From assembly GCA_022709735.1 (NCBI GenBank), contig JAKLIG010000002.1, forward strand, positions 65,949-129,948: a DNA stretch of 64,000 bases, written 5' to 3'. Each line of letters starts with the position of its first letter. The stretch's first letter is position 1. Shown here one piece after another: positions 556 through 28,641 of the stretch. Both the position numbers and the translations under genes were made by a program. The notes under the pieces are model-generated. The model worked only from the letters and a program-made list of their open reading frames with translations. It ran no database searches and was not told the origin of the DNA. The stretch comes from Patescibacteria group bacterium. Its GTDB lineage: Bacteria > Patescibacteriota > Minisyncoccia > Moranbacterales > UBA2206.

Positions 556-1407
556 ATGGAAAAAATCAATGTAATCATTGAAATGGCAAGACATGGCAAA
601 AAAAATGGCTTTAATTCAAGTCGAATCTCAAACTCGGAAGAAATCGCAGAAATGGCAGAGAATATAGATTTAAGCGGATTCCAGTCAGTTGAAATTCATA
701 CAACGCCAGTAGAAAGAGCCGTTCACACCGCCCAATCAATTCAGAGTGGTTTCAAAAAACAAGGAGCGGATACGGAAATCAAGATCCAGGAAATGGCTAG
801 CGGGATCTTGAGCTCTGCAGGAACTTCTATTGAAGCCATTATGGCTAAAAGTGAAAGCTCCAAGGATCTTAACCTGATTTCTCCGGAAATCAGAGAGGAA
901 TACAAATTAGCCGTGGAAAATCACATCGCCTCATCCTGGTCTAAAGAGGACGCCGGTGTCGGCGCCTGGATCAAAATCATGAAAAAAGAAATTGAGTTTC
1001 TGAAAAAAAATGGGGCTGAAAAGTTTAAAAGTGACCAGCTCAAAAAAAACGGAATTTCTGTTCTTGAGGTGGTTCTACGGATATGTAGTTACCTCATTAA
1101 CATTAATGGTGAAAATAAATTCGTGTATTCAATAAATCACGCGGGTTTCATCGAACCATTATTAGTCTATCTACTAGCCGAACAAATTACCGAAAATCCA
1201 GTAAGAGATGGGCTGGATGTTTTCCAAAAGATGGGTGGTGCCTTCGAGCCGTCCGAGAGTGTAAAGATTATCCTCAAGGGCGAAAAAGTTATTTTTCATC
1301 TACGAGGAAAAATTTACGAAATTAACCGAGAGAAATTAGAAAAGGAGGCAAAAAAATTAGAAAGCATTTCAATCGCTAATCAAGTTATCGAGATGCGAAA
1401 AAAATAG
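556..1407 (+). CDS. histidine phosphatase superfamily protein (SixA/phosphoglycerate-mutase-like fold)
   Basis: N-terminal catalytic RHG motif (IEMARHGKK). A downstream TPVERAVHTAQ segment matches the SP-x-RA-x-QTA motif of branch-1 histidine phosphatases. A later NHAGF histidine is also present. Confidence 0.5.
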   Translation: MEKINVIIEMARHGKKNGFNSSRISNSEEIAEMAENIDLSGFQSVEIHTTPVERAVHTAQSIQSGFKKQGADTEIKIQEMASGILSSAGTSIEAIMAKSESSKDLNLISPEIREEYKLAVENHIASSWSKEDAGVGAWIKIMKKEIEFLKKNGAEKFKSDQLKKNGISVLEVVLRICSYLININGENKFVYSINHAGFIEPLLVYLLAEQITENPVRDGLDVFQKMGGAFEPSESVKIILKGEKVIFHLRGKIYEINREKLEKEAKKLESISIANQVIEMRKK

Positions 1408-1525
1408 TTCTTTCAAAAAAGGTCAAACGGGAAGCTACCTATACAAAACGCTTCCCACTTTTTTCAAGATCATCTTATTTATAAGGTAATCTTAAGAGAA
1501 GTATTAATTATTAAATTATAATAAT

Positions 1526-3088
1526 ATGGAAAAAAATAACTTACCAAAAAAATCAAACTGGAAATTGATGTATGAAGGACCTGACTTGGGTCATTTTCTA
1601 GCTAATCAAATATTCATCAAACCCTTTAGCCAAAAAAATAGCTTACTAAACAAATTAACCGGTTTTAAATATGACTATTATCTTTGGTATAGCGACGAAA
1701 ATGAATGTGGCGGAATTCATGGCGGATACTATCAAGAAAGTGATTTGAGAAGAGCTCTCGAAAAAGGAGAAAAACTATTTTTCAATAAAAAGTGGCTTGA
1801 GAAATGGTATCAATTAATAGATAGTGATTCAAAAAAAGTTGGCGAGCTTATGGAGAAATATAGCCTTGAAAAAAATATCAAAAAATACAACGCCACTAAA
1901 TTGCTGAAAATTATTCCAAAGATGATTACTTTGGAATATAGACTTCTTTCTTATGTGAGATGTAGTCAACCACAATTAACTGATGCTTTGAAAAATAAAC
2001 TCTACAAAAAAATAAGAAGGAAAATCAAAAATGAAAAAACCGTTGAGAAAATTTTCAACACACTTACGATGCCAGAAGAAAAATCCTTTTTCACCGAGGA
2101 AGAAATAGCTTGGCTATCAATTATAATAGAGGCCGAAGAAAAAATCCGAGAAAAAGAAATTAGACATCTCTCTGAAGAATTTTTATCTAATAATTATTTA
2201 GAGATATTTAAATCAATCAAAAATCACCTTGAAAAATATTCGCTGATACCCGCTAGCGACAGAACCCCAGCTTGGGATATTGAGCATTTTATTGAACTCT
2301 TAAAAAATAATTTAAGATCAGATATTAATCATCAAAACAAACAAAAAGAAATCATCAACCAATACAAAAATTCTAAAAAAATAAAAGAAAATATCATTAG
2401 AAAATATAATCTGGAATACAGTTGCCTTGAAATAGGAAGTAGGATTGCAAAAGTTGGATTCTATAGATTTAAGGCAAGTTTCTATTGGAGATGGATGGGA
2501 TATTATTTAGTTTTAATTTCAAAAAGATATTCTAAAAAATTAAACATATCCTTCAAAGAAATAACATCTCTAACAGAAAAAGAATTTATCGAGGCGATTA
2601 AAAGCAACCGACTTCCCCATAAAAAATATCTATCAAAAAGAGCAACAGCAGAACTCTATTTGCACCAAAAAGGAAAAAACTTTATTTGGTGGGGAGATGA
2701 AGCAATTAAGAAGAAAAAAGAGTTTTTGGGTAATAACATAGACGGGGCAACCGAACTAAAGGGAGAAATTGGAAGCATGGGGATGGTCAAGGGCAGGGCA
2801 TTTGTGTTTTATTGGAGTGACAATATAATCAAAAAAATGCAAAGCATGAGACAAGGAGACATTCTTGTCGCCCCACAAACTCATCCTACATATATGCCCG
2901 CCATAAGAATGGCGCAAGCTATGGTTTGCGATGAAGGCGGAGTTACTGGACATGCGGCAATAGTTGCTCGAGAACTCAAAAAACCTTGCGTCATAGGACT
3001 GCATACTGCTACCAAAATAATTAAAACTGGGGATGAAATTGAGGTTGATGCCAACAAAGGAATTGTTAGAATTATAAAAAGAAAATAA
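1526..3088 (+). CDS. protein with C-terminal PEP-utilising-enzyme mobile (phosphohistidine swivel) domain; N-terminal ~400 aa unassigned
   Basis: C-terminus carries GRAFVFYW...GDILVAPQTHPTYMPAIRMAQAMVCDEGGVTGHAAIVARELKKPCVIGL. This is the G-G-x-T-S/G-H-A-A-I-V-A-R-E-L-G-I-P-C-V-V-G signature of PEP synthase / PPDK / rifampin-phosphotransferase swivel domains. Confidence 0.6.
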   Translation: MEKNNLPKKSNWKLMYEGPDLGHFLANQIFIKPFSQKNSLLNKLTGFKYDYYLWYSDENECGGIHGGYYQESDLRRALEKGEKLFFNKKWLEKWYQLIDSDSKKVGELMEKYSLEKNIKKYNATKLLKIIPKMITLEYRLLSYVRCSQPQLTDALKNKLYKKIRRKIKNEKTVEKIFNTLTMPEEKSFFTEEEIAWLSIIIEAEEKIREKEIRHLSEEFLSNNYLEIFKSIKNHLEKYSLIPASDRTPAWDIEHFIELLKNNLRSDINHQNKQKEIINQYKNSKKIKENIIRKYNLEYSCLEIGSRIAKVGFYRFKASFYWRWMGYYLVLISKRYSKKLNISFKEITSLTEKEFIEAIKSNRLPHKKYLSKRATAELYLHQKGKNFIWWGDEAIKKKKEFLGNNIDGATELKGEIGSMGMVKGRAFVFYWSDNIIKKMQSMRQGDILVAPQTHPTYMPAIRMAQAMVCDEGGVTGHAAIVARELKKPCVIGLHTATKIIKTGDEIEVDANKGIVRIIKRK

Positions 3089-3109
3089 TTCTAGCTAAAA
3101 GTTGTCATA

Positions 3110-3142
3110 AAAAAACCACTCTTCACGAGTGGTTTTTTTGTG
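3110..3142 (+). terminator. rho-independent terminator after the PEP-utiliser gene
   Basis: aaaaaaccactcttcacgagtggtttttttg forms a perfect 9-bp stem followed by a T7 tract. Confidence 0.6.
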
Positions 3143-3229
3143 CCCTCAGTAGGAATCCCTGCCTGCCGGCAGGCAGGAAACCTACATCTCATTCTTAGGA
3201 CGGATTTGCTCCCCGCCTGCCATCGCCTG
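3141..3229 (-). pseudogene. partial duplicate of the tRNA-Arg 3' half (anticodon arm to 3' end), with a 20-bp perfect palindrome in the T-loop
   Basis: The minus strand reads AGCAAATCCGTCCTAAGAATGAGATGTAGGTTT[CCTGCCTGCCGGCAGGCAGG]GATTCCTACTGAGGGCAC. This is near-identical to positions ~22-73 of the adjacent intact tRNA but lacks the acceptor 5' strand and D-arm. Confidence 0.5.
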
Positions 3230-3301
3230 TGCCCTCAGTAGGAATCGAACCTACATCTCATCCTTAGGACGGATTTGCTCTATCCATTGAGCTATGAGGG
3301 C
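3230..3301 (-). tRNA. tRNA-Arg (anticodon CCU)
   Basis: Reverse complement GCCCTCATAGCTCAATGGATAGAGCAAATCCGTCCTAAGGATGAGATGTAGGTTCGATTCCTACTGAGGGCA folds as a cloverleaf. Acceptor stem is 7 bp, D-arm is GCTC/GAGC, anticodon loop is GTCCTAA, T-arm is GTAGG-TTCGATT-CCTAC. Confidence 0.8.
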
Positions 3302-3350
3302 AGAGGCAAAGGCGGGCAGGTATCCGTTGAACTACAGGGACAGAATTATT

Positions 3351-4283
3351 TTATACAGCTTCTCTTTTTATATTTTTCTTTTCCATATATTCGTCCAGCG
3401 CTTCATCTTCCCACGCTAATAGTTTACTTCCATAATGAGTTCCGCTACGTTCTTTGCCGCTTTCTTTTGCCTCTTCTTTTATACACTTTAAAATCAACTT
3501 GATTATCGTATTATTTTTTCGAAGCTTTTGATATGTATCATCATATAGAACATTCCTGTTTAATAGTATGCCATTATCTAATTGAAGATCAGCAATATAT
3601 AAACATCTCTTAAATTCTCTCTTGAGCATTTTTTCAATGACTGTGTCATCTTTTTCCTTCAAGGCTTTTTCAAAAACTGCATCGGGATAATTTTTGCCAG
3701 CTTCTTTTTCCAAAAGTTTTATTTGGTTATAATACTCATACTTTTTGCCATACGCAACCTGCATAAGTTTCTCCTTAGCCTCTAAATATTCCTTATATTT
3801 TTCAGGTTTATTAACTTTATTAATCTCTTCTAAAAAAGATTGAATATCTTCTTCGAAAGAAAAAGGCTCAGGATATTTTTTAAGAAACTCTTCTACATTT
3901 CTAGCATCAATTTCTTCATACGCATTGGCGTCATTTAAAACCAAACGAGCAATCATTCTTTCTATGTGTTTTTCTACCTGTTTATCTTCCGAAATTTCTC
4001 TGAATAACAAAGCTGGTTTGCCAGGATGTATGCCTGTAGAAATTTCTTCTAATTTCAATAATTCTTTAAAATCTTCCCTGGTAATTTCTCCGCCGGCAAC
4101 TTTTTTTAAGAATTCTTCTTTCGCTTTTATTTCCAAAACCAATCCTGTTTCGCCAAAAATCTTTGCATCTTTTTCTGACATAAAAATAATTATTTCTTTT
4201 TGTTTTTCAATATCAGGAGTTATTTCTTTTTCACCCATATTTTCTTTTTCCATTATTTTTGTAATTGATTCGGGATTGTACAT
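3351..4283 (-). CDS. hypothetical protein (acidic, Lys/Glu-rich, cytoplasmic)
   Basis: Long ORF (310 aa) with the local coding-like composition. No motif recognised. Confidence 0.45.
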   Translation of the reverse strand: MYNPESITKIMEKENMGEKEITPDIEKQKEIIIFMSEKDAKIFGETGLVLEIKAKEEFLKKVAGGEITREDFKELLKLEEISTGIHPGKPALLFREISEDKQVEKHIERMIARLVLNDANAYEEIDARNVEEFLKKYPEPFSFEEDIQSFLEEINKVNKPEKYKEYLEAKEKLMQVAYGKKYEYYNQIKLLEKEAGKNYPDAVFEKALKEKDDTVIEKMLKREFKRCLYIADLQLDNGILLNRNVLYDDTYQKLRKNNTIIKLILKCIKEEAKESGKERSGTHYGSKLLAWEDEALDEYMEKKNIKREAV

Positions 4284-4310
4284 ATTTTTAATTTAATTAT
4301 TAATAGTAAA

Positions 4311-4580
4311 TTATTTTTTACTTTTTCCAAATTTTGATTTCATTGCAATGAATGTTCCAACTGCAATGCCGAGTGAATATACAGTTATCGCTAAAATACT
4401 TCTTTCAGTGTCTAACCTTGTGAGTATATCATAAAATACTCCCAAACTTATCATCGAAGTAAAAAAAGAAAATGTCGAAGCTAAAAGCGGTCGATCCGTC
4501 GCAACATACTTTACATTGAGCGTCCAAAACACATCTTGCATCACTCCAACTAGAAAATAAATTATAAAATAAATATTCAT
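4311..4580 (-). CDS. small membrane protein (2-3 TM helices)
   Basis: 89-aa ORF with hydrophobic helices and a KFGKSKK C-terminal tail. Confidence 0.4.
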   Translation of the reverse strand: MNIYFIIYFLVGVMQDVFWTLNVKYVATDRPLLASTFSFFTSMISLGVFYDILTRLDTERSILAITVYSLGIAVGTFIAMKSKFGKSKK

Positions 4581-4593
4581 ATTTTTTTATTAG

Positions 4594-4666
4594 TGGACCT
4601 GAGGAGACTCGAACTCCTTACCTCAGCAATGCGAATGCTGCGCTCTACCAGCTGAGCTACAGGCCC
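4594..4666 (-). tRNA. tRNA-Ala (anticodon CGC)
   Basis: Reverse complement GGGCCTGTAGCTCAGCTGGTAGAGCGCAGCATTCGCATTGCTGAGGTAAGGAGTTCGAGTCTCCTCAGGTCCA. G3:U70 alanine identity pair is present. Anticodon loop is TTCGCAT. Confidence 0.8.
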
Positions 4667-4677
4667 TATTTTTAGAG

Positions 4678-4751
4678 TGGGTATATCCTGACTCGAACAG
4701 GAGACCTTTCCGATGTGAACGGAACGCTCTAACCAACTGAGCTATACACCC
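4678..4751 (-). tRNA. tRNA-Val (anticodon CAC)
   Basis: Reverse complement GGGTGTATAGCTCAGTTGGTTAGAGCGTTCCGTTCACATCGGAAAGGTCTCCTGTTCGAGTCAGGATATACCCA. Anticodon loop is TTCACAT. Confidence 0.8.
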
Positions 4752-4757
4752 AAAAGG

Positions 4758-4830
4758 TGGACCATACCGGGATCGAACCGGTCACCTCATCCGTGCCACG
4801 GATGCGCTCTACCAGATGAGCTAATGGCCC
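4758..4830 (-). tRNA. tRNA-Ala (anticodon GGC)
   Basis: Reverse complement GGGCCATTAGCTCATCTGGTAGAGCGCATCCGTGGCACGGATGAGGTGACCGGTTCGATCCCGGTATGGTCCA. G3:U70 pair is present. Anticodon loop is GTGGCAC. The 5' end overlaps the stop codon of the next ORF. Confidence 0.7.
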
Positions 4831-5507
4831 GCATTGCAAATAGTTTCTATTATTTGCCTTATTTCATTATAAATATCAGCAGAAAAATAATCTATCCGGC
4901 AAACTCCTTTATATTCTGGTTTTTTTGATTTTTTTCCCACAGTTCGCAAATCAATTCTAGCTTTATAAAATTGACTCAATGGAATACCTGTAGTATTTGA
5001 CCAAAATTTTTCTAGTTTTAGAACATCCTGATCTGCTCTGCCTTGCAAAGTACATCTGAATTTTTTCTCATCAATCTTATAACATTTTCTTAATAAACCT
5101 AAAAAAAGCTTGATTACTTTAGGATCAGAATTTCCTAACATAAGGGAACTTCTGTGTGTTTTCCCGCCTTCGCCTAAATATAACACTGCTAGTATAATTT
5201 TAGCAATATCTTCATTATTTTTTAACTTTTCCAAATGAGCCACTCTATTTTTAATTTCATTTAAATATTTCTTTCTTTTTTCTCCGATTGTTTTTAAGGC
5301 TGCTACATGAGCAATTTCAGTTTTATTTTTTATAGCCTCATCTAGCTTAGACTTTGCTTTCTGTGATAGTTTCAAGCCATCAAACCAAAAAGATAAAGTA
5401 CTTTTTGGTATTTTTATTTTTATCTTTGATATAATTTCTCCATAAGTATTCCCCTCACTTCTAAGTTCAATCGCTCTATTTTTATATTTTATATATTTGG
5501 ATATCAT
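4821..5507 (-). CDS. possible single-motif LAGLIDADG-type homing endonuclease with N-terminal HTH
   Basis: Contains IAKIILAVLYLGEGGK, which resembles the LAGLIDGDG helix motif. The N-terminus (NRAIELRSEGNTYGEIISKI) looks like a helix-turn-helix. The stop codon overlaps the tRNA-Ala 5' end. Confidence 0.35.
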   Translation of the reverse strand: MISKYIKYKNRAIELRSEGNTYGEIISKIKIKIPKSTLSFWFDGLKLSQKAKSKLDEAIKNKTEIAHVAALKTIGEKRKKYLNEIKNRVAHLEKLKNNEDIAKIILAVLYLGEGGKTHRSSLMLGNSDPKVIKLFLGLLRKCYKIDEKKFRCTLQGRADQDVLKLEKFWSNTTGIPLSQFYKARIDLRTVGKKSKKPEYKGVCRIDYFSADIYNEIRQIIETICNAGH

Positions 5508-5600
5508 AATATATCAATTGTACTACTGAACTTATCAATGTGCAAACAAAAAAATTCAAATAAATTTGCTACAAAGCTTTAATAATATTAAACTATATTT

Positions 5601-7172
5601 ATGGATTCAATAAAAATGCTTTGGGGTAAATTCAAAACTCAACCAGATATTTGGTTCTTTTTTGGATTTTTATTAACTTTTACCTTAAGTGTTCGAAAAG
5701 TACTGTTTTACTTTCCAATTCTTGGAACTTTTAATGAATATTCCGGGATGTATCTTTATATCTCTGATATATTTCTACTTTTAACCCTTCTTTCTTGGCT
5801 TATATCTATATTATGCAATAATAGTATTACTTTATCAAGATACTTGCCCCCCACTAAAAATCTATTATCTCATTACAAAACTTATTTAAAACAATTTTTA
5901 GTGGGGGGTGAACTGTGGATAAGTAATATATTTCACAGGTTATACATACTTTTACCATCTTTTTTAGTTTTACTTTCTTTTATATCAATTTTCTGGTCCC
6001 AAAATCAGTCAATAGCATTATTTAGATCTATTAAGCTTTTAGAGTTTTATTTACTCTATCTATACATTATCTTCCGCATTGTTCCACAATTGTTCCACGC
6101 TTGCCCGCCAGAAAAATGTTCCACGCTTGCCCCGTTAATCTTAGATGTTCCACGTGGAACATCTAAGATTATTACGGGGTGGAACAAACTACTTTTCGGC
6201 ACTATTATCTTTTTAGGCCTATTCCAAGCCATAATCGGCATTATCCAATTTTTCCTACAAAAATCTATCGGCCTATTTTGGCTCAAAGAAAGCCTAATTT
6301 CACCAGACATTCTTGGCGTGGCAAAAGTAATTTTAAATAGCGAAAAATTCATCCGCGCTTATGGTTTAATGCCACATCCTAATATTCTAGGAGGATTTCT
6401 ACTATTTTCAATTATTATAACTTTACTTTATCAAAAATGTTCCATGCGGAACATTAAAAATGGCATCTGGCTTTTTAGGCTTATTCTAACAATCCAAATT
6501 TTCTCTCTAATTTTAACTTTTTCAAAATCAGCCATAATTGGACTGCTTATCGCCTTAGTATATATTTATGTTTCACGTGGAACATTTATTAAGAACTTAA
6601 AGCAACTGCAAAATTTTAAACTTATAATTCTATCAGTCTTAATTATTTTATTTTCTAGTTTTATTTTAATCAAACCAGATCTGAATTCTCTATTTACCAA
6701 ATCTCTAAATGAACGTTTATTCTATCTGAATGTTCCACATGGAACATTCGTGGAACATCCAATTTTAGGAATTGGAACCGGACAATCGGTTTTAATGATG
6801 CAAAAATTTTATTCGCAAACTCTAAACTTCTGGGAATATCAGCCTGTTCATAATGTTTTTTTGCTTATCCTAAGCGAACTAGACGTATTCGGTCTTGGAG
6901 TATTTATTTGGTGGTTATGGGAATTGTTCCATGCAAAACAATTAAAAGAGAAGAATAACGAGTATATATTACAAAACAATAATACCACTTTGTCAAGTAT
7001 TGTTATCTCCCGCTATTTCAAAGGAATTCTTCTAGGTCTTATCTTTATAATGCTTTTTGATCATTATTTATGGGATATTCAGCAAGGAAGCTTTCTATTT
7101 TGGCTAACCGCCGGATTTGTTGCTGGAATAACCAAAAACTGGTATTGTGGAAATGAAATTGTAATTAGTTAG
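5601..7172 (+). CDS. O-antigen ligase/Wzy-like polytopic membrane protein carrying multiple in-frame palindromic repeat insertions
   Basis: At least 10 predicted TM helices. The C-terminal region carries the Wzy_C-like motif NERLFYLNVPHGTFVEHPILGIGTGQS. The reading frame stays open across 6 palindromic DNA repeats (see findings). Confidence 0.5.
   Translation: MDSIKMLWGKFKTQPDIWFFFGFLLTFTLSVRKVLFYFPILGTFNEYSGMYLYISDIFLLLTLLSWLISILCNNSITLSRYLPPTKNLLSHYKTYLKQFLVGGELWISNIFHRLYILLPSFLVLLSFISIFWSQNQSIALFRSIKLLEFYLLYLYIIFRIVPQLFHACPPEKCSTLAPLILDVPRGTSKIITGWNKLLFGTIIFLGLFQAIIGIIQFFLQKSIGLFWLKESLISPDILGVAKVILNSEKFIRAYGLMPHPNILGGFLLFSIIITLLYQKCSMRNIKNGIWLFRLILTIQIFSLILTFSKSAIIGLLIALVYIYVSRGTFIKNLKQLQNFKLIILSVLIILFSSFILIKPDLNSLFTKSLNERLFYLNVPHGTFVEHPILGIGTGQSVLMMQKFYSQTLNFWEYQPVHNVFLLILSELDVFGLGVFIWWLWELFHAKQLKEKNNEYILQNNNTTLSSIVISRYFKGILLGLIFIMLFDHYLWDIQQGSFLFWLTAGFVAGITKNWYCGNEIVIS
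6081..6190. repeat. nested palindromic element: 30-bp perfect palindrome tcttagatgttccacgtggaacatctaaga, preceded by two direct copies of gttccacgcttgcccg
   Basis: Read directly. The core ATGTTCCACGTGGAACAT recurs in degenerate form at ~6436-6455, 6568-6585, 6729-6760 and 6922-6941. Confidence 0.8.
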
Positions 7173-7184
7173 AATAAAAACGAT

Positions 7185-8096
7185 ATGGACAAAGAACAGC
7201 AATTTAATCCGAGCAATCCAAAATATAAAAAGATTGAGGACTTGCCAGCTGATGAACAAAATAAATTTAAAGCAAATTATGACTATAAACCTACCGAGGG
7301 ATATGTAGAAAATGGTTTCGTAAGAAATAGTGTCTACAAAAAAGATGAAGCGCAAGAACAAGCGAAGCGCATGCAAAAATTAATAACATCTGGTCAAGCA
7401 TCAAATTATAATGACGCGGAAAAGATCGTAGAAGAAGAAATAAAAAAAGAATACTTAATAGAGGCAAAAAAGGAGTTAACTACAAATGCAAGCAAGACCC
7501 TTGGCGTTTATGGGCTGTTTCTAAGTGGCCTTTTGAATTTAGCATACTGTCTTGAAAATGCTGGCGAAAATGAATTGTTTGAAAAAATTATTAATAAAAT
7601 TCTTCCTTGTGCTGGCGTCATAAATGTAAAATTTGCGCTAGAAAAACTTGGCGATACATCAAAAATGAATGATCTTGATCGTGCAGAAAGTGTTATTGGC
7701 CATGAAATATTTAGATTAGAAAAATACTCACTAAAAAATATTGAGACACCAATTTTTAGGGCGTTTGCTCGACTCATTGCTGACATAAAAATGCTTTGGG
7801 AGGATTATCGAGGAGAGACAATAGCTCCATTAAAATTATATAGAGCATTGGGTGAGGAAAATAAAATCAAAGAAGCTGAAGAAATTATAAATAATCCTGA
7901 TTTTAAATATAAACAAAGCTTTGAATATGCAAATAGGACATTCAATGCAACTGAATATATGAAAAGAATAAATGCTTTAAGGGTATTACTTCAAGAATTT
8001 CTGGAAAAAACTAATCAATTCGAAGAAAGCAGAATAGATTATTATCAAGCTGTTGATGAAATCGAAAAAGAAATAACTGCCAAACTTGAACAATAG
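7185..8096 (+). CDS. hypothetical protein
   Basis: 303-aa ORF with no recognisable motif. Coding-like composition. Confidence 0.45.
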   Translation: MDKEQQFNPSNPKYKKIEDLPADEQNKFKANYDYKPTEGYVENGFVRNSVYKKDEAQEQAKRMQKLITSGQASNYNDAEKIVEEEIKKEYLIEAKKELTTNASKTLGVYGLFLSGLLNLAYCLENAGENELFEKIINKILPCAGVINVKFALEKLGDTSKMNDLDRAESVIGHEIFRLEKYSLKNIETPIFRAFARLIADIKMLWEDYRGETIAPLKLYRALGEENKIKEAEEIINNPDFKYKQSFEYANRTFNATEYMKRINALRVLLQEFLEKTNQFEESRIDYYQAVDEIEKEITAKLEQ

Positions 8097-8532
8097 CAAA
8101 ATATTAGCTTCAAGCAATTCGCCTCTGCCTATTCGCCAAAAATTAAAAATAATTATGGGAAGTTTTATTGAAATAAACGATACATTGCAAATATCAACAG
8201 ACCAAGGTTTTCCGAAAGAATTGGATTATGCACAACATAAGATAAAACCTTTTACCGCAGAAGATTTCAAGGATAAGATTTTTGAATTTAAAGATAAGCC
8301 GAAAATTAGAATTTATAAATTACCGCCTGTCAGAAATTTTTTAGTCCAGAATATCGATGGCAAATGGCTTTATTGGGGGCTTGTGCATATTGTTGAAATT
8401 TTTCATGATAATATAAAACAAACTACTTCCGGAAAATTCAAGATAATTTATATTTATACTCCGGAAGAAATGAAACAAGCTCATAAGCTGATAGATAGAA
8501 ATAAGGAAACGAATTATTTGGAAGTAATATAA
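8086..8532 (+). CDS. hypothetical protein (true start may be the internal Met at ~8155)
   Basis: ORF of 148 aa. Confidence 0.4.
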   Translation: MNNSKILASSNSPLPIRQKLKIIMGSFIEINDTLQISTDQGFPKELDYAQHKIKPFTAEDFKDKIFEFKDKPKIRIYKLPPVRNFLVQNIDGKWLYWGLVHIVEIFHDNIKQTTSGKFKIIYIYTPEEMKQAHKLIDRNKETNYLEVI

Positions 8533-11091: not shown

Positions 11092-13563
11092 TTATAGCAC
11101 AGTCGAGGCAGAAACTTTGTCCCCAGCTTGCGGTCTCATAACTCTCACTCCTTGCGTTGCTCGTCCAAGAACAGAAACGCTTCCCAGCGGAATTCTAATG
11201 ATTTGGCCTTTCTCGGAAGTGAGAATTAGATCAGTATCGAGCGCGTCCATATTGATAATTGTTGCGCCGACTATTTTTCCAGTCTTCGAAGTAACGGAAG
11301 CAGTTTTTATTCCCGAGCCTCCGCGCTTTTGCACTTTGTAGAATTTCAGATCTGATCTTTTGCCAAAACCATTTTCAGAAATTGTCAGAAGCTGGTTGCC
11401 TTTTTGATTTTTGAAAACCACATCCATTCCCACGACCTTGTCATCTTTCTTAAGTTTTATTCCACGCACTCCCGCCGCATTTCTTCCCATCGAACGAACA
11501 TCCGATTCTTTGAATCTAATCGCTTGACCATTTTTGGTAGTGATGACAATTTCATCTGTTCCGGTGGTCGCTTCCACCCAGCTAAGCATATCGCCCTTTT
11601 CAAGCTTGATCGCAATTAGTCCAGAACGGCGAACATTTTCAAATTCATCCAAGGTAGTTTTTTTGACTGTTCCCATTTCAGTTGTCATAAAGAAAAATTT
11701 ATAATTGTCATCTTTGTTGAAAGCGATAATCGCGGTGACACTTTCTTCTTGAGAAAGTGAGAGGAAGTTCACGATTGATTGACCCTTGGCGATTCTGGTT
11801 GATTCCGGAATTTCATAAGCTTTCGTTTGAAAAACTTTTCCACTGTTAGTGAAAAATAGCAAATTATCATGCGTCATTACGCCGAGCATTTTTTGAATCT
11901 CATCGCCCTCTCTTGTTGTCGCGCCAATCACGCCTTTGCCTCCGCGCTTTTGCACTTTGTAGACGCTTGGGTTCATTCTTTTTACATAGCCATCCTTAGA
12001 AAGAGTGATGATTGCTTCTTCATTCGGGACGAGATCTTCTTGTTTGAATTCGCCCACACCTGATTTTATCACTTTCGTTTTTCGCTCATCGCCATATTTT
12101 TCTTTGACGCGTGTTAATTCATCTTTGATAATTCCAAATATTTTTTTCTCGCTTTTTAGAATTGCTTCAAGTTCGGCGATGAGTTTTATTTTTTCCGCTA
12201 ATTCATCTTCAATCTTTTTTCGTTCGAGTCCAGCCAGAGTTTGCAGTTTCATTTCCAAAATTGCCGTGGCTTGTTTTTCCGACAATTTGAATTTCTTCAT
12301 CAAATTCTTATGCGCTTCTTCTTTCGTCCCCGATTTTTTGATTGTTTCAATCACCGCGTCAATATGATCCAAGGCAATTTTGAGTCCTTCCAAGATATGC
12401 GCTCGATCTCGCGCTTTTTCTAAATCAAATTTAGTGCGTCTCACAATTACAATTTTTCGATGCGCAATATATTCTTCCAAGATAGCTTTTAAATTCAAAA
12501 CTTTTGGTTCGATGCCGTTAACGAGCGCCAGCATATTCACACCAAAATTTTTCTGAAGATCAGTCAGTGAATATAATTTATTCAAAACTTTTTGCGGATA
12601 AGCATCTTTTTTGAGATCAACGACAATTCGCACACCTTCCTTGTCAGATTCATCACGAAGATCTTTTATTCCGACAATTTTTCCTTCATGCACAAGATTG
12701 GCAATATTTTCAATAAGCGTTGATTTGTTGGTCGCATAAGTAATCTCGCTAATTATAATTTGAAATGCGCCAGTCTTAGTTTCTACGATATCCGCTTTCC
12801 CACGGGTCAAAATTTTTCCGCGTCCGGTTTTGTAAGCTTCTAAAATATCTCGCTTGTTATAAATTATTCCGCCCGTTGGAAAATCTGGGCCTTTAATAAA
12901 TTCAGCGAGCTCTTCAACGGTTGCCTCGGAATTATCAATCAGATGATTTATGCCATCGATAAGTTCCGAAAGATTATGTGGAGGAATGTTGGTCGCCATT
13001 CCAACTGCGATTCCCATCGAACCGTTAAGTAGAAGTTGGGGAAGTCCGGCTGGGAGAACTGTTGGTTCTTTATGCTGGCCATCAAAATTCGGCACGAAAT
13101 CTACCGTATCTTTTTCAATATCCACTAGCATCTCTTCCGCCATTTGCGAAAGTTTGGCTTCTGTATAACGATAAGCGGCTGGGCCATCGCCGTCCATTGA
13201 GCCAAAGTTTCCTTGTCCTTTCACCATTGGATAGCGAAGAGAGAAATCTTGCGCCATTCGAACCATTGAGTCATAAACCGCGACATCGCCGTGTGGGTGG
13301 TATTTTCCAAGCACTTCTCCAACAACAGTGGCTGATTTTCGAAATTTGGCGTTCGCGCGAAGCCCAGTGTTCCACATGGAATAGAGAATTCTTCGATGAA
13401 CTGGCTTCAAACCGTCCCTAACATCCGGCAGAGCACGGGACACAATCACGCTCATGGCATAATCTAAATAGGATTGCTGGATTTCAAGAGTAATTTCGCG
13501 ATTTTGAACATTTTTTTCTCCCTCGTTAGAAATATTTTGTATAGATTTTTTTTCTTCTGACAT
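11092..13563 (-). CDS. gyrA: DNA gyrase subunit A
   Basis: Carries [21 protein letters not shown], the AAYRYTE region of the catalytic Tyr, and C-terminal beta-pinwheel repeats. 823 aa. Confidence 0.95.
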
Positions 13564-26388: not shown

Positions 26389-28641
26389 TTAATTTATCTT
26401 TTTGAGTGGCGCGATTGAGCTGGCTAATTTTTTTAGCCCCGCCTTGGAAAACGCGACTGTGATGACATCGCCTTGGCTCGCAACTACGAGGCCTTCGCCA
26501 AAAGTTTCATGCTCAACTCTGTCTCCATCTTTAAAACTGGAATTAGGAATTATGAATTTAGAATTAGGAATATTTTTTTCTTTCTCCTGATTCCTAATTC
26601 CTGATTCCTGATTCTGCATTAGATGTTCCGGAATGTCGTCTAGAAAACGGCTAGGTGCATTAATTTGCGTTGAACCAAAAATATTTCGAGTTACGGTAAA
26701 TAATAAATATACTTTTTCCATCGCCCGCGTAATGCCGACATACATAAGTCGTCTTTCTTCTTCCATTTCACTATCATTTAGCATGCTTCTGGAATGTGGC
26801 AAAATCCCTTCTTCCAACCCTGCGATAAAAACTATTCGAAACTCCAAACCTTTGGCACTATGAAGCGTCATAAGATGCACCGCTTCGGACGCCTGATCAA
26901 TATTATCCGTATCTGAAATCAATGCCACTTCTTCCAAGAATAATTTCAAGGCTTCGTCGCCTTCGTATTCTTCGTACTTTTTCGCCACCGTCAAAAGTTC
27001 CCGCACATTTTCATGTCTCATTTCTCCTTCTTCTGTCCCATCCATTAAAAATTTTTCATAACCTGATTCGCTATAAACTTTTTGAATAAAATCCGTAAGA
27101 ATTAATTTATTTTTTAGTTCTGCCATCCGTTTTATAAAATCTGAAAATTTAACAATATTATCAATTCGTTGTTTGGAAATTGGAAATTGGAAATTGGAAA
27201 TTGCGAGGCCTTGAGATATTAAATCGAGATTATTACTCCTTGCTATATTAATCCATTTTCCCAAAGTAATATCTCCGACTCCTCGCTTCGGTTCATTTAT
27301 TATTCGCTCCAGCGAAGTTTCATCATTAAAATTATTGATAAGCCGGAGATACGCAATCACATCCTTGATTTCTTTTCGCTGATAGAATTTTACTCCGCCA
27401 ATAATCCGGTAGGAAATAGAATTTCTAAGCATCGCTTCTTCAATCATCCGGGATTGGGCATTGGTTCTGTATAAAACTACAAACTCATTTAATTTATAAT
27501 TATTCCTATTTTTCAAAGCTCTAATTTCATCCACGATAAACTGCGCTTCTTCTTTTTCATCTTCCGCTTCAAAACTTTGAATCAAATGTCCTTCCTTGTT
27601 TTCCGTCCAGATTTTCTTATCTTTGCGGTTTATGTTTTTGGAAATCACACCATAAGCTGCGTCCAAAATGTTTTGCGTAGAACGGTAATTTTGCTCAAGT
27701 TTTATAGTCTTGGCATTGGGATAATCTTTTTCAAAATCCAAAATATTTTGAATGTTGGCACCTCGCCAAGAATAAATTCCCTGCCAGTCATCGCCCACGA
27801 CGCAAAGATTTTTATTCTTTTCGGATAATAATTTAACTAGAATATATTGCGCATGGTTAGTGTCCTGATATTCATCCACCATAATATATTGAAAAAAGTT
27901 TTGGTATTTTTCCAAGACTTCGGGAAATGCCCGAAAAATTTTAACTGTGATCATCAAAATATCATCGAAATCCAAAGCGCCTTGTTCTTTCAATTTTTTT
28001 TGATAATTTAGATAAATTTTTGCCACCATTTCTTCAAAATATCCGCCGACTCCCGCCAAAAATTCTTCCGCACCGAGTAGTTCATTTTTAGCATTGGAGA
28101 TTGCGCCTAAAATTGTTTTTGGTTTGAATTGGTCAATATTAATTTCCATTTCTTTCATCACTTTTTTCATCAGAGCCAGCTGGTCTTGGTCATCAAAAAT
28201 GTTAAATGAACTTTTGTATCCAACTTTTTCAATTTCCCGCCGAAGAATTTTCACGCAAATCGAATGGAAGGTGCCAACAGTCGGCAATTCGTAATTTGTA
28301 ATTGGTAACTTGGATTCTTTTGAATTTTGGTCATTGGAATTTGAAAATTCATTGGAAACCTGCCTGCCGGTAGGCAAGGTTGGGATTTGGAAATTGGAAA
28401 TTGAATTTGCTGAAAGCAAATTTTTTATTCTTTCTTTCATCTCTCCCGCCGCTTTATTAGTAAAAGTCACCGCCAAAATTCTTCTCGGACTGATCTTTTT
28501 TTCACAAATCAAATACGCCACGCGGTGCGTAAGCGCTTTTGTTTTCCCTGATCCGGCGCCAGCAATAATCAACACCGGTCCTTCGGTGATCATTACCGCT
28601 TCTCTTTGCGGAGGATTAAGTTTTTCTAAAATTTCATTCAT
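26389..28641 (-). CDS. uvrD: ATP-dependent DNA helicase UvrD/PcrA family, with in-frame low-complexity insertions
   Basis: MNEILEKLNPPQREAVMITEGPVLIIAGAGSGKTKALTHRVAYLI motif I. Helicase motifs II-VI are present. 750 aa. Confidence 0.9.
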   Translation of the reverse strand: MNEILEKLNPPQREAVMITEGPVLIIAGAGSGKTKALTHRVAYLICEKKISPRRILAVTFTNKAAGEMKERIKNLLSANSISNFQIPTLPTGRQVSNEFSNSNDQNSKESKLPITNYELPTVGTFHSICVKILRREIEKVGYKSSFNIFDDQDQLALMKKVMKEMEINIDQFKPKTILGAISNAKNELLGAEEFLAGVGGYFEEMVAKIYLNYQKKLKEQGALDFDDILMITVKIFRAFPEVLEKYQNFFQYIMVDEYQDTNHAQYILVKLLSEKNKNLCVVGDDWQGIYSWRGANIQNILDFEKDYPNAKTIKLEQNYRSTQNILDAAYGVISKNINRKDKKIWTENKEGHLIQSFEAEDEKEEAQFIVDEIRALKNRNNYKLNEFVVLYRTNAQSRMIEEAMLRNSISYRIIGGVKFYQRKEIKDVIAYLRLINNFNDETSLERIINEPKRGVGDITLGKWINIARSNNLDLISQGLAISNFQFPISKQRIDNIVKFSDFIKRMAELKNKLILTDFIQKVYSESGYEKFLMDGTEEGEMRHENVRELLTVAKKYEEYEGDEALKLFLEEVALISDTDNIDQASEAVHLMTLHSAKGLEFRIVFIAGLEEGILPHSRSMLNDSEMEEERRLMYVGITRAMEKVYLLFTVTRNIFGSTQINAPSRFLDDIPEHLMQNQESGIRNQEKEKNIPNSKFIIPNSSFKDGDRVEHETFGEGLVVASQGDVITVAFSKAGLKKLASSIAPLKKIN

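Follow-up and report, generated by a model that had tools for sequence, protein, structure and literature searches.

The question raised by this locus is how an intact tRNA gene came to lie between the two pieces of a broken gene of the same identity. The locus occupies the minus strand at 3341-3141 of a 64,000-nt stretch of contig JAKLIG010000002.1 (positions 65,949 to 129,948), hereafter the window, whose G+C content is 31-40% and whose host belongs to Candidatus Moranbacteria. Read along the minus strand, it consists of tRNA nt 1-21 (remnant A), a hairpin arm, an intact tRNA-Arg(CCU) (gene B), a second hairpin arm and tRNA nt 22-73 (remnant C). It is well supported that this arrangement is a tRNA gene nested in a tRNA gene of the same identity, which was split at nt 21/22, the boundary between D loop and D stem. 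Two short palindromes, PAL and PAL-2, accompany the split, the first within remnant C and the second as the arms around B.

Architecture of the nested tRNA-Arg locus

Gene B (3230-3301, with the ARAGORN/Rfam start at 3229/3230) was called by ARAGORN and matched Rfam RF00005 with 64.4 bits; it folds into a clean cloverleaf with anticodon CCU and encodes no CCA. Upstream of it, remnant A (3321-3341; GTCCCTGTAGTTCAACGGATA) was read from the sequence as nt 1-21 of an older tRNA-Arg(CCU), comprising the 5′ strand of the acceptor stem, the 5′ strand of the D stem and the D loop. It matches nt 1-21 of B at 15 of 21 positions (P ~1e-4), and all six substitutions are transitions. Downstream, remnant C (3141-3211), delimited by repeat finding and alignment, corresponds to nt 22-73 of the older gene and is identical to B at 49 of 51 positions, the substitutions being G40A in the anticodon stem and C56T; the repeat finder returned a 33-nt tract with 97% identity and a 19-nt tract with 100%. 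The T loop of C is interrupted by PAL, the perfect 20-bp palindrome CCTGCCTGCCGGCAGGCAGG (3158-3177), which turns TTCGATT into TT-T[PAL]GATT with a net gain of 20 nt. The end of A at nt 21 meets the start of C at nt 22 exactly, indicating that A and C together are one old tRNA-Arg gene split by the 109-nt insert between them. When both inserts were removed, ARAGORN with a relaxed threshold called a tRNA-Arg(cct) from A plus C, with G-U pairs and two C-A mismatches. That A and C are dead remnants of the old gene is well supported, and B alone is presumed to yield a functional product.

The 109-nt insert can itself be described, with good support, as two PAL-2 halves that carry the intact tRNA-Arg(CCU) and short complementary flanks at the centre of the palindrome. 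The 5′ arm in RNA sense (CCTGCCCGCC, 3311-3320) and the 3′ arm (GGCAGGCGGG, 3212-3221), both found by inverted repeat search, enclose an inner left flank (TTTGCCTCT, 3302-3310) and an inner right flank (CAGGCGAT, 3222-3229, read from the sequence). The left flank pairs with part of the right one and extends the acceptor helix of B, so that a 26-nt inverted repeat (3212-3237 and 3295-3320) runs on from the acceptor stem. Folding of the 203-nt transcript gave -98.7 kcal/mol (z = -7.0 relative to shuffles), with B as a cloverleaf on a long extended helix.

A sequence-only reading of this stretch had described the intact tRNA-Arg(CCU) and the partial copy of nt 22-73, and ARAGORN, Rfam and the repeat finder bear both out, as the coordinates of PAL do for the perfect palindrome that it saw in the copy. 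Its single anticodon-stem mismatch is real (G40A), while the second substitution, C56T, had escaped it. The T loop that it took to be replaced has in fact received an insertion, and the gap between B and C is 18 nt instead of ~15. The 21-nt 5′ remnant and the 26-nt inverted repeat around the intact tRNA were absent from that reading.

The same layout was found at two further loci (loci are given by L numbers). At L116, a decayed tRNA-Val(GAC) with PAL at 21/22 and another hairpin in the T loop holds an intact tRNA-Val(GAC) in its anticodon loop, between exact arms CCCGCCTGCC and GGCGGGCAGG. At L072, a tRNA-Ala remnant has PAL at 53/54 in the T arm and an insert in the anticodon loop; the intact tRNA-Ala inside is flanked by a 12-nt inverted repeat that resembles the inner flanks of the window, TTTGCCTCT being similar to the L072 flank TTGCCTTTG. 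The inner and outer tRNA-Ala of L072 differ by compensatory pair changes in the acceptor and T stems, indicating that they are different alleles with separate ancestries, both once sound as genes. Identity and orientation agree between inner tRNA and outer gene at each of the three nested loci, and the outer copies of L116 and L072 are more decayed than that of the window and carry deletions. Versions of the hairpin without cargo, lacking any tRNA, were found at L017, L161, L168, L218 and L234. The arm pair that flanks the inner tRNA-Val of L116 encloses a 16-nt loop in L017, and the plus-strand string ATCGCCTG, which stands right after CCCGCCTGCC, recurs in the other four hairpins without cargo.

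PAL and PAL-2 in other genomes and in protein genes

The exact PAL 20-mer was found in 35 stretches of a viral collection (43 copies) and in at least 120 stretches of a metagenome collection. The contigs that carry it have 29-71% GC, come from many projects and range from Patescibacteria to phage-like sequences. Two control palindromes of the same composition, one with the PAL arms in swapped order and one with T and A swapped, gave 0 matches in the same collections. Within the window, PAL has one near-match (2 mismatches, 28359-28378), where none was expected from 100 shuffles, and no other GC-rich hairpin of the PAL or PAL-2 kind was found there.

The flanks of 160 distinct PAL sites showed no consensus; the ends are sharp and the palindrome does not extend into the flanks. 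No regular target duplication was seen among them, since 97 of the 160 lack any identical flanking base and only 3 have a direct repeat of at least 7 nt. At its tRNA sites, PAL adds exactly 20 nt. The element showed no preference for the loops of larger hairpins (31% as against 32% of control sites); 18 of the 160 sites (11%) lie within short-period repeats, 15 of them with a period of 7, compared with 0.7% of control positions. Mutated PAL copies and one tandem array exist. It is well supported that PAL and PAL-2 are members of a family, made up of discrete ~20-21-bp palindromes rich in GC that are inserted in very different bacterial and phage genomes, and equally well supported that the contexts of insertion are tRNA gene remnants, intergenic tracts of 7-nt repeats and in-frame positions within proteins.

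The tandem array forms a contig end (L036:3916-4142) and consists of at least 10 head-to-tail 21-nt units, CATGCCTACCGGCAGGCAGGC, an amplified PAL variant. Many of the intergenic PAL copies, such as those at L003:10560-10680 and 11200-11330 and at L038:3130-3289, are located in one arm of a long imperfect hairpin. The arms of these hairpins are runs of a 7-nt unit and its complement, such as GGTGAGA and TCTCACC; the unit varies by organism and the palindrome is constant.

PAL-2 was recognised as the dispersed 21-mer CCCGCCTGCCGGACGGGCAGG, whose halves near-match the arms flanking tRNA B and are joined around one central base; its right arm, GACGGGCAGG, is one base off the right arm of the window. 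The 21-mer occurs in 39 copies in 19 viral stretches, and the arms of the window itself, abutted directly, in 4 stretches only. As a probe, the 15-mer CCCGCCTGCCATMGC returned mostly noise. One genome of the viral collection (IMG 2820306284; L298-L300, L303-L305, L312, L313 and L315), with 40-43% GC, holds more than 25 PAL-2 21-mers in both orientations, about one per 2-3 kb, and would lend itself well to a search for the enzyme behind their spread.

In low-GC contigs, 12 PAL sites lie within long open reading frames (ORFs) that stay open across the palindrome, which is translated as LPAGRQ in 9 of the 10 ORFs examined. Pfam confirmed six PAL-bearing ORFs with a domain match that runs through the insert, namely P-type ATPase, SecA, LigA, AtpA, PheS and UvrC. 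The NAD-dependent DNA ligase of L092 (minus strand, ~6300-8500) contains three PAL-derived in-frame inserts, PACLPAGRQ, LPAGRY and PCLAGRQ, each flanked by KPKTPA/NPKPN-like repeats.

PheS provided empty and filled sites. Of the 120 orthologues among the matches listed (75-87% identical), almost all have a length of 345 aa and no insert. At the DNA level, the empty site reads GAG AAA ATA AAG and the filled one GAA AA[PAL]TA AAA, a gain of 20 nt and a loss of 2 nt. In a third lineage, this position holds a decayed PAL copy (YLPAERKV). PheS also has a second, independent site, inside the Cys-rich loop CxxC..GC.FC, where the PAL-2 21-mer is inserted in frame (ARLPDGQ) in five Patescibacteria orthologues (P0058, P0113, P0150, P0153 and P0157; for example at L296:1127-1147). 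The empty, filled and decayed states, together with the dispersed 21-mer, indicate that PAL and PAL-2 are real insertions and that some of them are recent.

The near-match in the window belongs to an in-frame insert in uvrD (residues 79-121; 28279-28407, minus strand), delimited by alignment to PcrA, by translation and by 7-nt-period repeats around the palindrome. The insert measures 43 residues, compared with 6 in PcrA, and consists of TTGGAAA-like heptamers around LPTGRQ, the in-frame translation of the decayed copy CCTGCCTGCCGGTAGGCAAG. The sequence-only reading had reported a diverged palindrome in frame in uvrD at ~28368-28388; the frame and the divergence hold, and the position lies ~9 nt further left. 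Its broader proposal, a mobile palindromic module common to an RNA-gene remnant and a protein gene, gains support from the wide dispersal, the empty controls, the tRNA fragments, the housekeeping genes and the PheS sites, and the 35 viral and at least 120 metagenome stretches dispose of its reservation that the palindrome might be unique to two sites. Two further tracts of uvrD are of the same heptamer type: (TTGGAAA)x4, translated as ISNFQFPISK, at 27173-27205 (minus strand), and the low-complexity C-terminal stretch QESGIRNQEKEKNIPNSKFIIPNSSF at 26389-26500 (minus strand), which has no palindrome. NQELRI/NQESGI stretches akin to the uvrD tracts are present in the PheS orthologues P0137, P0150 and P0157.

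Palindromes in tRNA gene fragments and the surroundings of the locus

Fourteen of 166 distinct PAL sites lie within tRNA genes or their fragments; the 35 tRNA genes of the PAL-bearing loci and the window make up ~0.25% of that DNA. Removal of PAL restored an intact tRNA only in L027, a phage-like contig in which PAL occupies the variable loop of a tRNA-Met. All other tRNA-located copies are in a fragment beside an intact tRNA of the same kind, with the fragment adjoining the tRNA in L081, L087, L089, L110, L131, L136 and L156. Fragments of the 5′ type precede the intact tRNA in L034, L081, L087, L110, L131 and L136, in the order fragment, ~80-aa GIY-YIG ORF, tRNA; at seven of the loci with PAL-bearing fragments, a GIY-YIG ORF lies at most 70 nt from a PAL. 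Two palindromes are present in each of L131 and L136 and two fragments in L087. Fragments of the 3′ type follow the intact tRNA in L072, L089, L156 and the window.

The positions of the palindromes within the fragments recur. All ten palindromes in 5′ fragments (PAL or a close variant, counted by eye) sit in the D arm, four of them at 21/22, where the window has its PAL-2 insert. The insertion in 3′ fragments interrupts the TTCGA core of the T loop in the window, L089, L116 and L136, and lies at 53/54 in L072; the T-loop insert of L089, L116 and L136 is another GC-rich hairpin and not PAL. At L136:527-1250, the intact tRNA-Leu is followed by a tandem row of three 77-nt units, all of them 3′ tRNA fragments whose T loop holds a GC hairpin other than PAL (TCCCGCAAGGGCGGGA); the GIY-YIG ORF of this locus has TGA at a conserved glycine, so that the contig probably uses genetic code 25 (Gracilibacteria/Absconditabacteria). 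In L034, where a PAL-bearing 5′ fragment of tRNA-Lys precedes the GIY-YIG ORF, Rfam detected a group I intron with 86 bits at 1182-1416, ~370 nt beyond that ORF. ARAGORN found no tRNA in L034, where the intact gene may be interrupted by the intron.

Around the nested locus of the window, a two-way hairpin with A and T runs, AAAAAAACCACTC-GTGAA-GAGTGGTTTTTTT (3106-3140; 16-nt arms, 94% complementary), was found by inverted repeat search just after remnant C. From its sequence, it is likely to be the intrinsic terminator of both the tRNA unit and the convergent gene for a phosphoenolpyruvate (PEP)-utilising enzyme. A -10-like box, TGTATAAAAT (3348-3357, minus strand), ends 6 nt before remnant A and may represent the old gene's promoter, from which the inner tRNA would now be expressed. 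It has no -35 match, and a promoter and terminator scan listed neither a tRNA promoter nor the hairpin at 3106-3140. The seven flanking ORFs scanned with Pfam in 556-7172 (~3-4 kb per side) matched PEP-utilizers, DUF5698, Wzy_C or no family, and none matched an integrase. At the gathering threshold, Rfam reported nothing but tRNAs for the window, and hence no group I intron.

The PEP-utilising-enzyme gene (520 aa, mobile domain only) follows a 283-aa ORF without a Pfam match, both within 556-3088. In relatives (L173 and L175), an ORF with a PPDK_N domain occupies the position of the 283-aa ORF, and the sequences suggest a split or diverged enzyme of the pyruvate-phosphate-dikinase type. The synteny search gave no relative of the PEP-utilising enzyme above 63% identity, and the contexts of four relatives had no tRNA there; a neighbouring 310-aa ORF gave no homologue. 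At 4593-4830, the window contains a tight cluster of tRNA-Ala(CGC), tRNA-Val(CAC) and tRNA-Ala(GGC), in which the Ala genes are alike over nt 1-58 and which has neither palindromes nor fragments.

Origin of the locus and its place among known systems

The locus probably, if only just, arose by a self-complementing tRNA gene replacement of the break-repair type, combined with colonisation by tiny palindromic insertion elements. The process would start with breakage of the DNA, either within a conserved loop of a tRNA gene or at the centre of a palindrome, and the breaks might be made by tRNA-gene-directed nucleases of the GIY-YIG type, by analogy with those of the sister loci. Repair would then install a cassette with its own copy of the same tRNA, so that the disruption of a single-copy essential gene would be complemented by the insert itself. 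Inner and outer genes could match in identity either because repair requires homology or because complementation of a single-copy gene is selected for. B would share its direction of transcription with the old gene, whose promoter it would probably use and at whose terminator it would end, and it would be cut from a precursor in which leader and trailer pair as a long helix. Palindromes would survive only where they are tolerated, in dispensable tRNA remnants, surface loops of proteins and spacers; that they mark the remnants and not the live tRNA would be explained by the lethality that we infer for insertion into a live tRNA.

Several observations weigh against this account. A has diverged from B much further (6/21) than C has (2/51; Fisher P = 0.006), so an additional assumption is needed, either that C was converted by B or that A and C derive from separate layers. 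When the window was translated in six frames, TGA being read through, a profile built from five sister-locus GIY-YIG ORFs found no match; the nuclease link comes from other organisms. Among the flanking ORFs scanned, there was no transposase-like gene or integrase either. Most PAL copies have no connection to a tRNA at all. A search of viral contigs for tRNAs between PAL-2 arms with a gap of 75-105 nt gave 15 matches, mostly due to chance in GC-rich DNA and none containing a tRNA. Finally, the relatives found were all too distant to reveal how the tRNA-Arg locus looked in its ancestral or empty state, and hence the order of events is one that we infer.

A wider proposal can be put forward tentatively, as possible but short of probable. 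PAL and PAL-2 would be a new kind of ultra-small mobile DNA, 20-21-bp duplexes that a trans-acting nuclease and joining activity puts into breaks across phyla. The palindrome-centred tRNA units would be homing elements that complement themselves, in effect introns with a spare gene in place of the ability to splice; they would have displaced single-copy tRNA genes of reduced genomes again and again, with onion-like layers of remnants left behind. The PheS pair, with 20 nt in and 2 nt out, fits a 20-bp duplex ligated into a blunted cut of the GIY-YIG type with 2-nt overhangs, as one case that was selected for its kept frame. There is a real chance that the mechanism of insertion is new.

The main alternative, in our judgement rather unlikely, is local duplication of the tRNA-Arg gene by slippage or unequal recombination, after which palindromes struck the spare copies and deletions trimmed them to flanking fragments. 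Elsewhere such a history has some appeal: the fragments of L131, L136 and L087 are 100% identical to the neighbouring tRNA, as recent duplicates would be, L136 has its three tandem 3′ fragments, and nucleases of the SegB type are known for local segmental amplification. In the window it can also call on the near identity of C and B. A simple tandem copy, however, cannot position an entire tRNA between nt 21 and 22 without any loss or repetition of sequence, nor would it place around B the halves of one dispersed palindrome. The different alleles revealed by the compensatory differences in L072, and the divergence of A from B at 6 of 21 positions, also speak against duplication.

It is improbable that the outer tRNA still works, its inserts, B included, being removed from the RNA as in archaeal introns or split tRNAs so that each transcript yields two tRNA-Arg. 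Pairing in the outer gene includes two C-A mismatches and four G-U pairs, its universally conserved C56 is mutated, and the counterparts of this gene in L116 and L072 are still more decayed, with deletions. The junctions lack a bulge-helix-bulge motif, the arms pairing directly from the junction without 3-nt bulges, even though the inserts lie in loops, end at exact tRNA positions and form strong self-contained helices in a transcript that folds well. ARAGORN does accept a PAL-bearing tRNA, the phage tRNA-Met of L027, in which the palindrome is treated as a long variable arm; yet the host of the window is a bacterium, protein-dependent tRNA splicing is not known in bacteria, and the outer product would merely duplicate the inner one.

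Less probable again, and largely refuted, is the footprint of an integrase-borne island, an origin raised in the sequence-only reading, in which integration in the 3′ part of tRNA-Arg and duplication were followed by deletion. tRNA-Arg(CCU) genes are known integration sites and the repeat takes in the 3′ end of the tRNA, but this repeat starts at nt 22 and is far longer than usual att cores. The 18 nt between the copies hold no island, no integrase family is found in the seven flanking ORFs, and the complementary 5′ remnant upstream reveals a nested D-loop insertion in place of a duplicated 3′ end; L116 and L072 have the same layout, likewise without an island. Least credible of all is an artefact of assembly or sequencing (a collapsed repeat or an adapter-like palindrome), a doubt already voiced in the first reading: palindromes and short repeats can mislead assemblers, and the separately assembled Logan contig from run SRR5007146, identical to the locus over 281 nt, was possibly built from the same reads, but PAL is present in the data of many projects and assemblers, exists in mutated copies, keeps frames open across Pfam domains and recurs at the same tRNA positions in unrelated contigs.

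With break-repair replacement and palindrome colonisation retained as the favoured account, the locus and its palindromes can be set beside known systems. Rickettsia palindromic elements (RPEs) are 100-150 bp long and confined to Rickettsia. Like PAL, they are dispersed palindromes found in frame in housekeeping proteins and in RNA genes, where they encode tolerated surface peptides, and they have no transposase inside the element. PAL differs in being a perfect palindrome of 20 bp that is identical in contigs of 29-71% GC, with a Candidatus Moranbacteria host. Repetitive extragenic palindromic (REP) sequences are imperfect, extragenic and species-specific, and MITEs (miniature inverted-repeat transposable elements) measure 50-500 bp and have target duplications. 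REP and REPIN sequences, which RAYT (Y1 HUH) transposases mobilise, as well as prokaryotic MITEs, share with PAL the short palindromes, the high copy number, the absence of genes and the presumed movement in trans; the PAL-2 arms around a cargo resemble a REPIN or a MITE with terminal inverted repeats. PAL, in contrast, is perfect, often intragenic, common to several phyla and free of duplications.

Integrative elements that target tRNA genes resemble the locus in that the insert disrupts a tRNA gene, restores its function and leaves a displaced partial copy. Here, unlike in those elements, a whole tRNA was brought instead of a 3′ end, there are both 5′ and 3′ remnants without an integrase or island, and the interrupted position is in the D loop, or in the anticodon loop for L116 and L072. 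Archaeal intron-containing, split and permuted tRNAs show comparable non-canonical interruptions by GC-rich helices and a pairing of leader and trailer. The locus differs from them by its bacterial host, the absence of a bulge-helix-bulge, the decay of the outer gene and an insert that holds a complete tRNA of the same identity. The GC clusters of fungal mitochondria are organellar, differ in sequence and often come with target duplications. Like PAL, these clusters (PMC7218506) are short GC-rich hairpins dispersed over an AT-rich genome, located in genes and spacers and linked to recombination and rearrangement; PAL, for its part, shows no target duplication.

A tested precedent comes from SegB of phages T4/T6, a free-standing GIY-YIG homing endonuclease encoded among tRNA genes. 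It recognises a conserved motif of the tRNA T loop, its cuts have 2-nt 3′ overhangs, and it brings about both the homing of tRNA genes and their segmental amplification (PMC2330249, PMC13096335). Sister loci are SegB-like in holding GIY-YIG ORFs between tRNA fragments and intact tRNAs. These ORFs differ from SegB in being catalytic domains of ~80 aa without a DNA-binding domain, located on bacterial (Patescibacteria-like) contigs next to palindrome-bearing fragments. The palindromes in the D arm and in the TTCGA core of the T loop of the remnants may parallel the loop-motif targeting by SegB. Across the defining features tested, neither the size and lineage of RPEs nor the target duplication of MITEs was found for PAL, and neither the adjacent nuclease or integrase of a cassette nor the archaeal junction motif was found at the locus.

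One and the same 20-bp sequence is found in hundreds of unrelated environmental genomes, within tRNA remnants and within SecA, ATP synthase, DNA ligase and aminoacyl-tRNA synthetases, which implies that the insertion activity is widespread. The element is apparently undescribed: the literature searched, whose coverage was incomplete, held no description of the PAL sequence, its 14-nt core, the peptide LPAGRQ or nested tRNA genes with such palindromes. PAL offers a ready marker of horizontal spread and of past DNA breaks, and it is also a source of annotation errors, such as halves of tRNA pseudogenes, protein inserts of 6-7 residues ("LPAGRQ") and missed tRNAs. The nested loci suggest a route by which single-copy tRNA genes under attack may survive, in which the invader supplies the replacement. 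If true, an invader that brings its own replacement would be a new form of selfish-element addiction, which could be tested with the small GIY-YIG proteins and synthetic palindromes.

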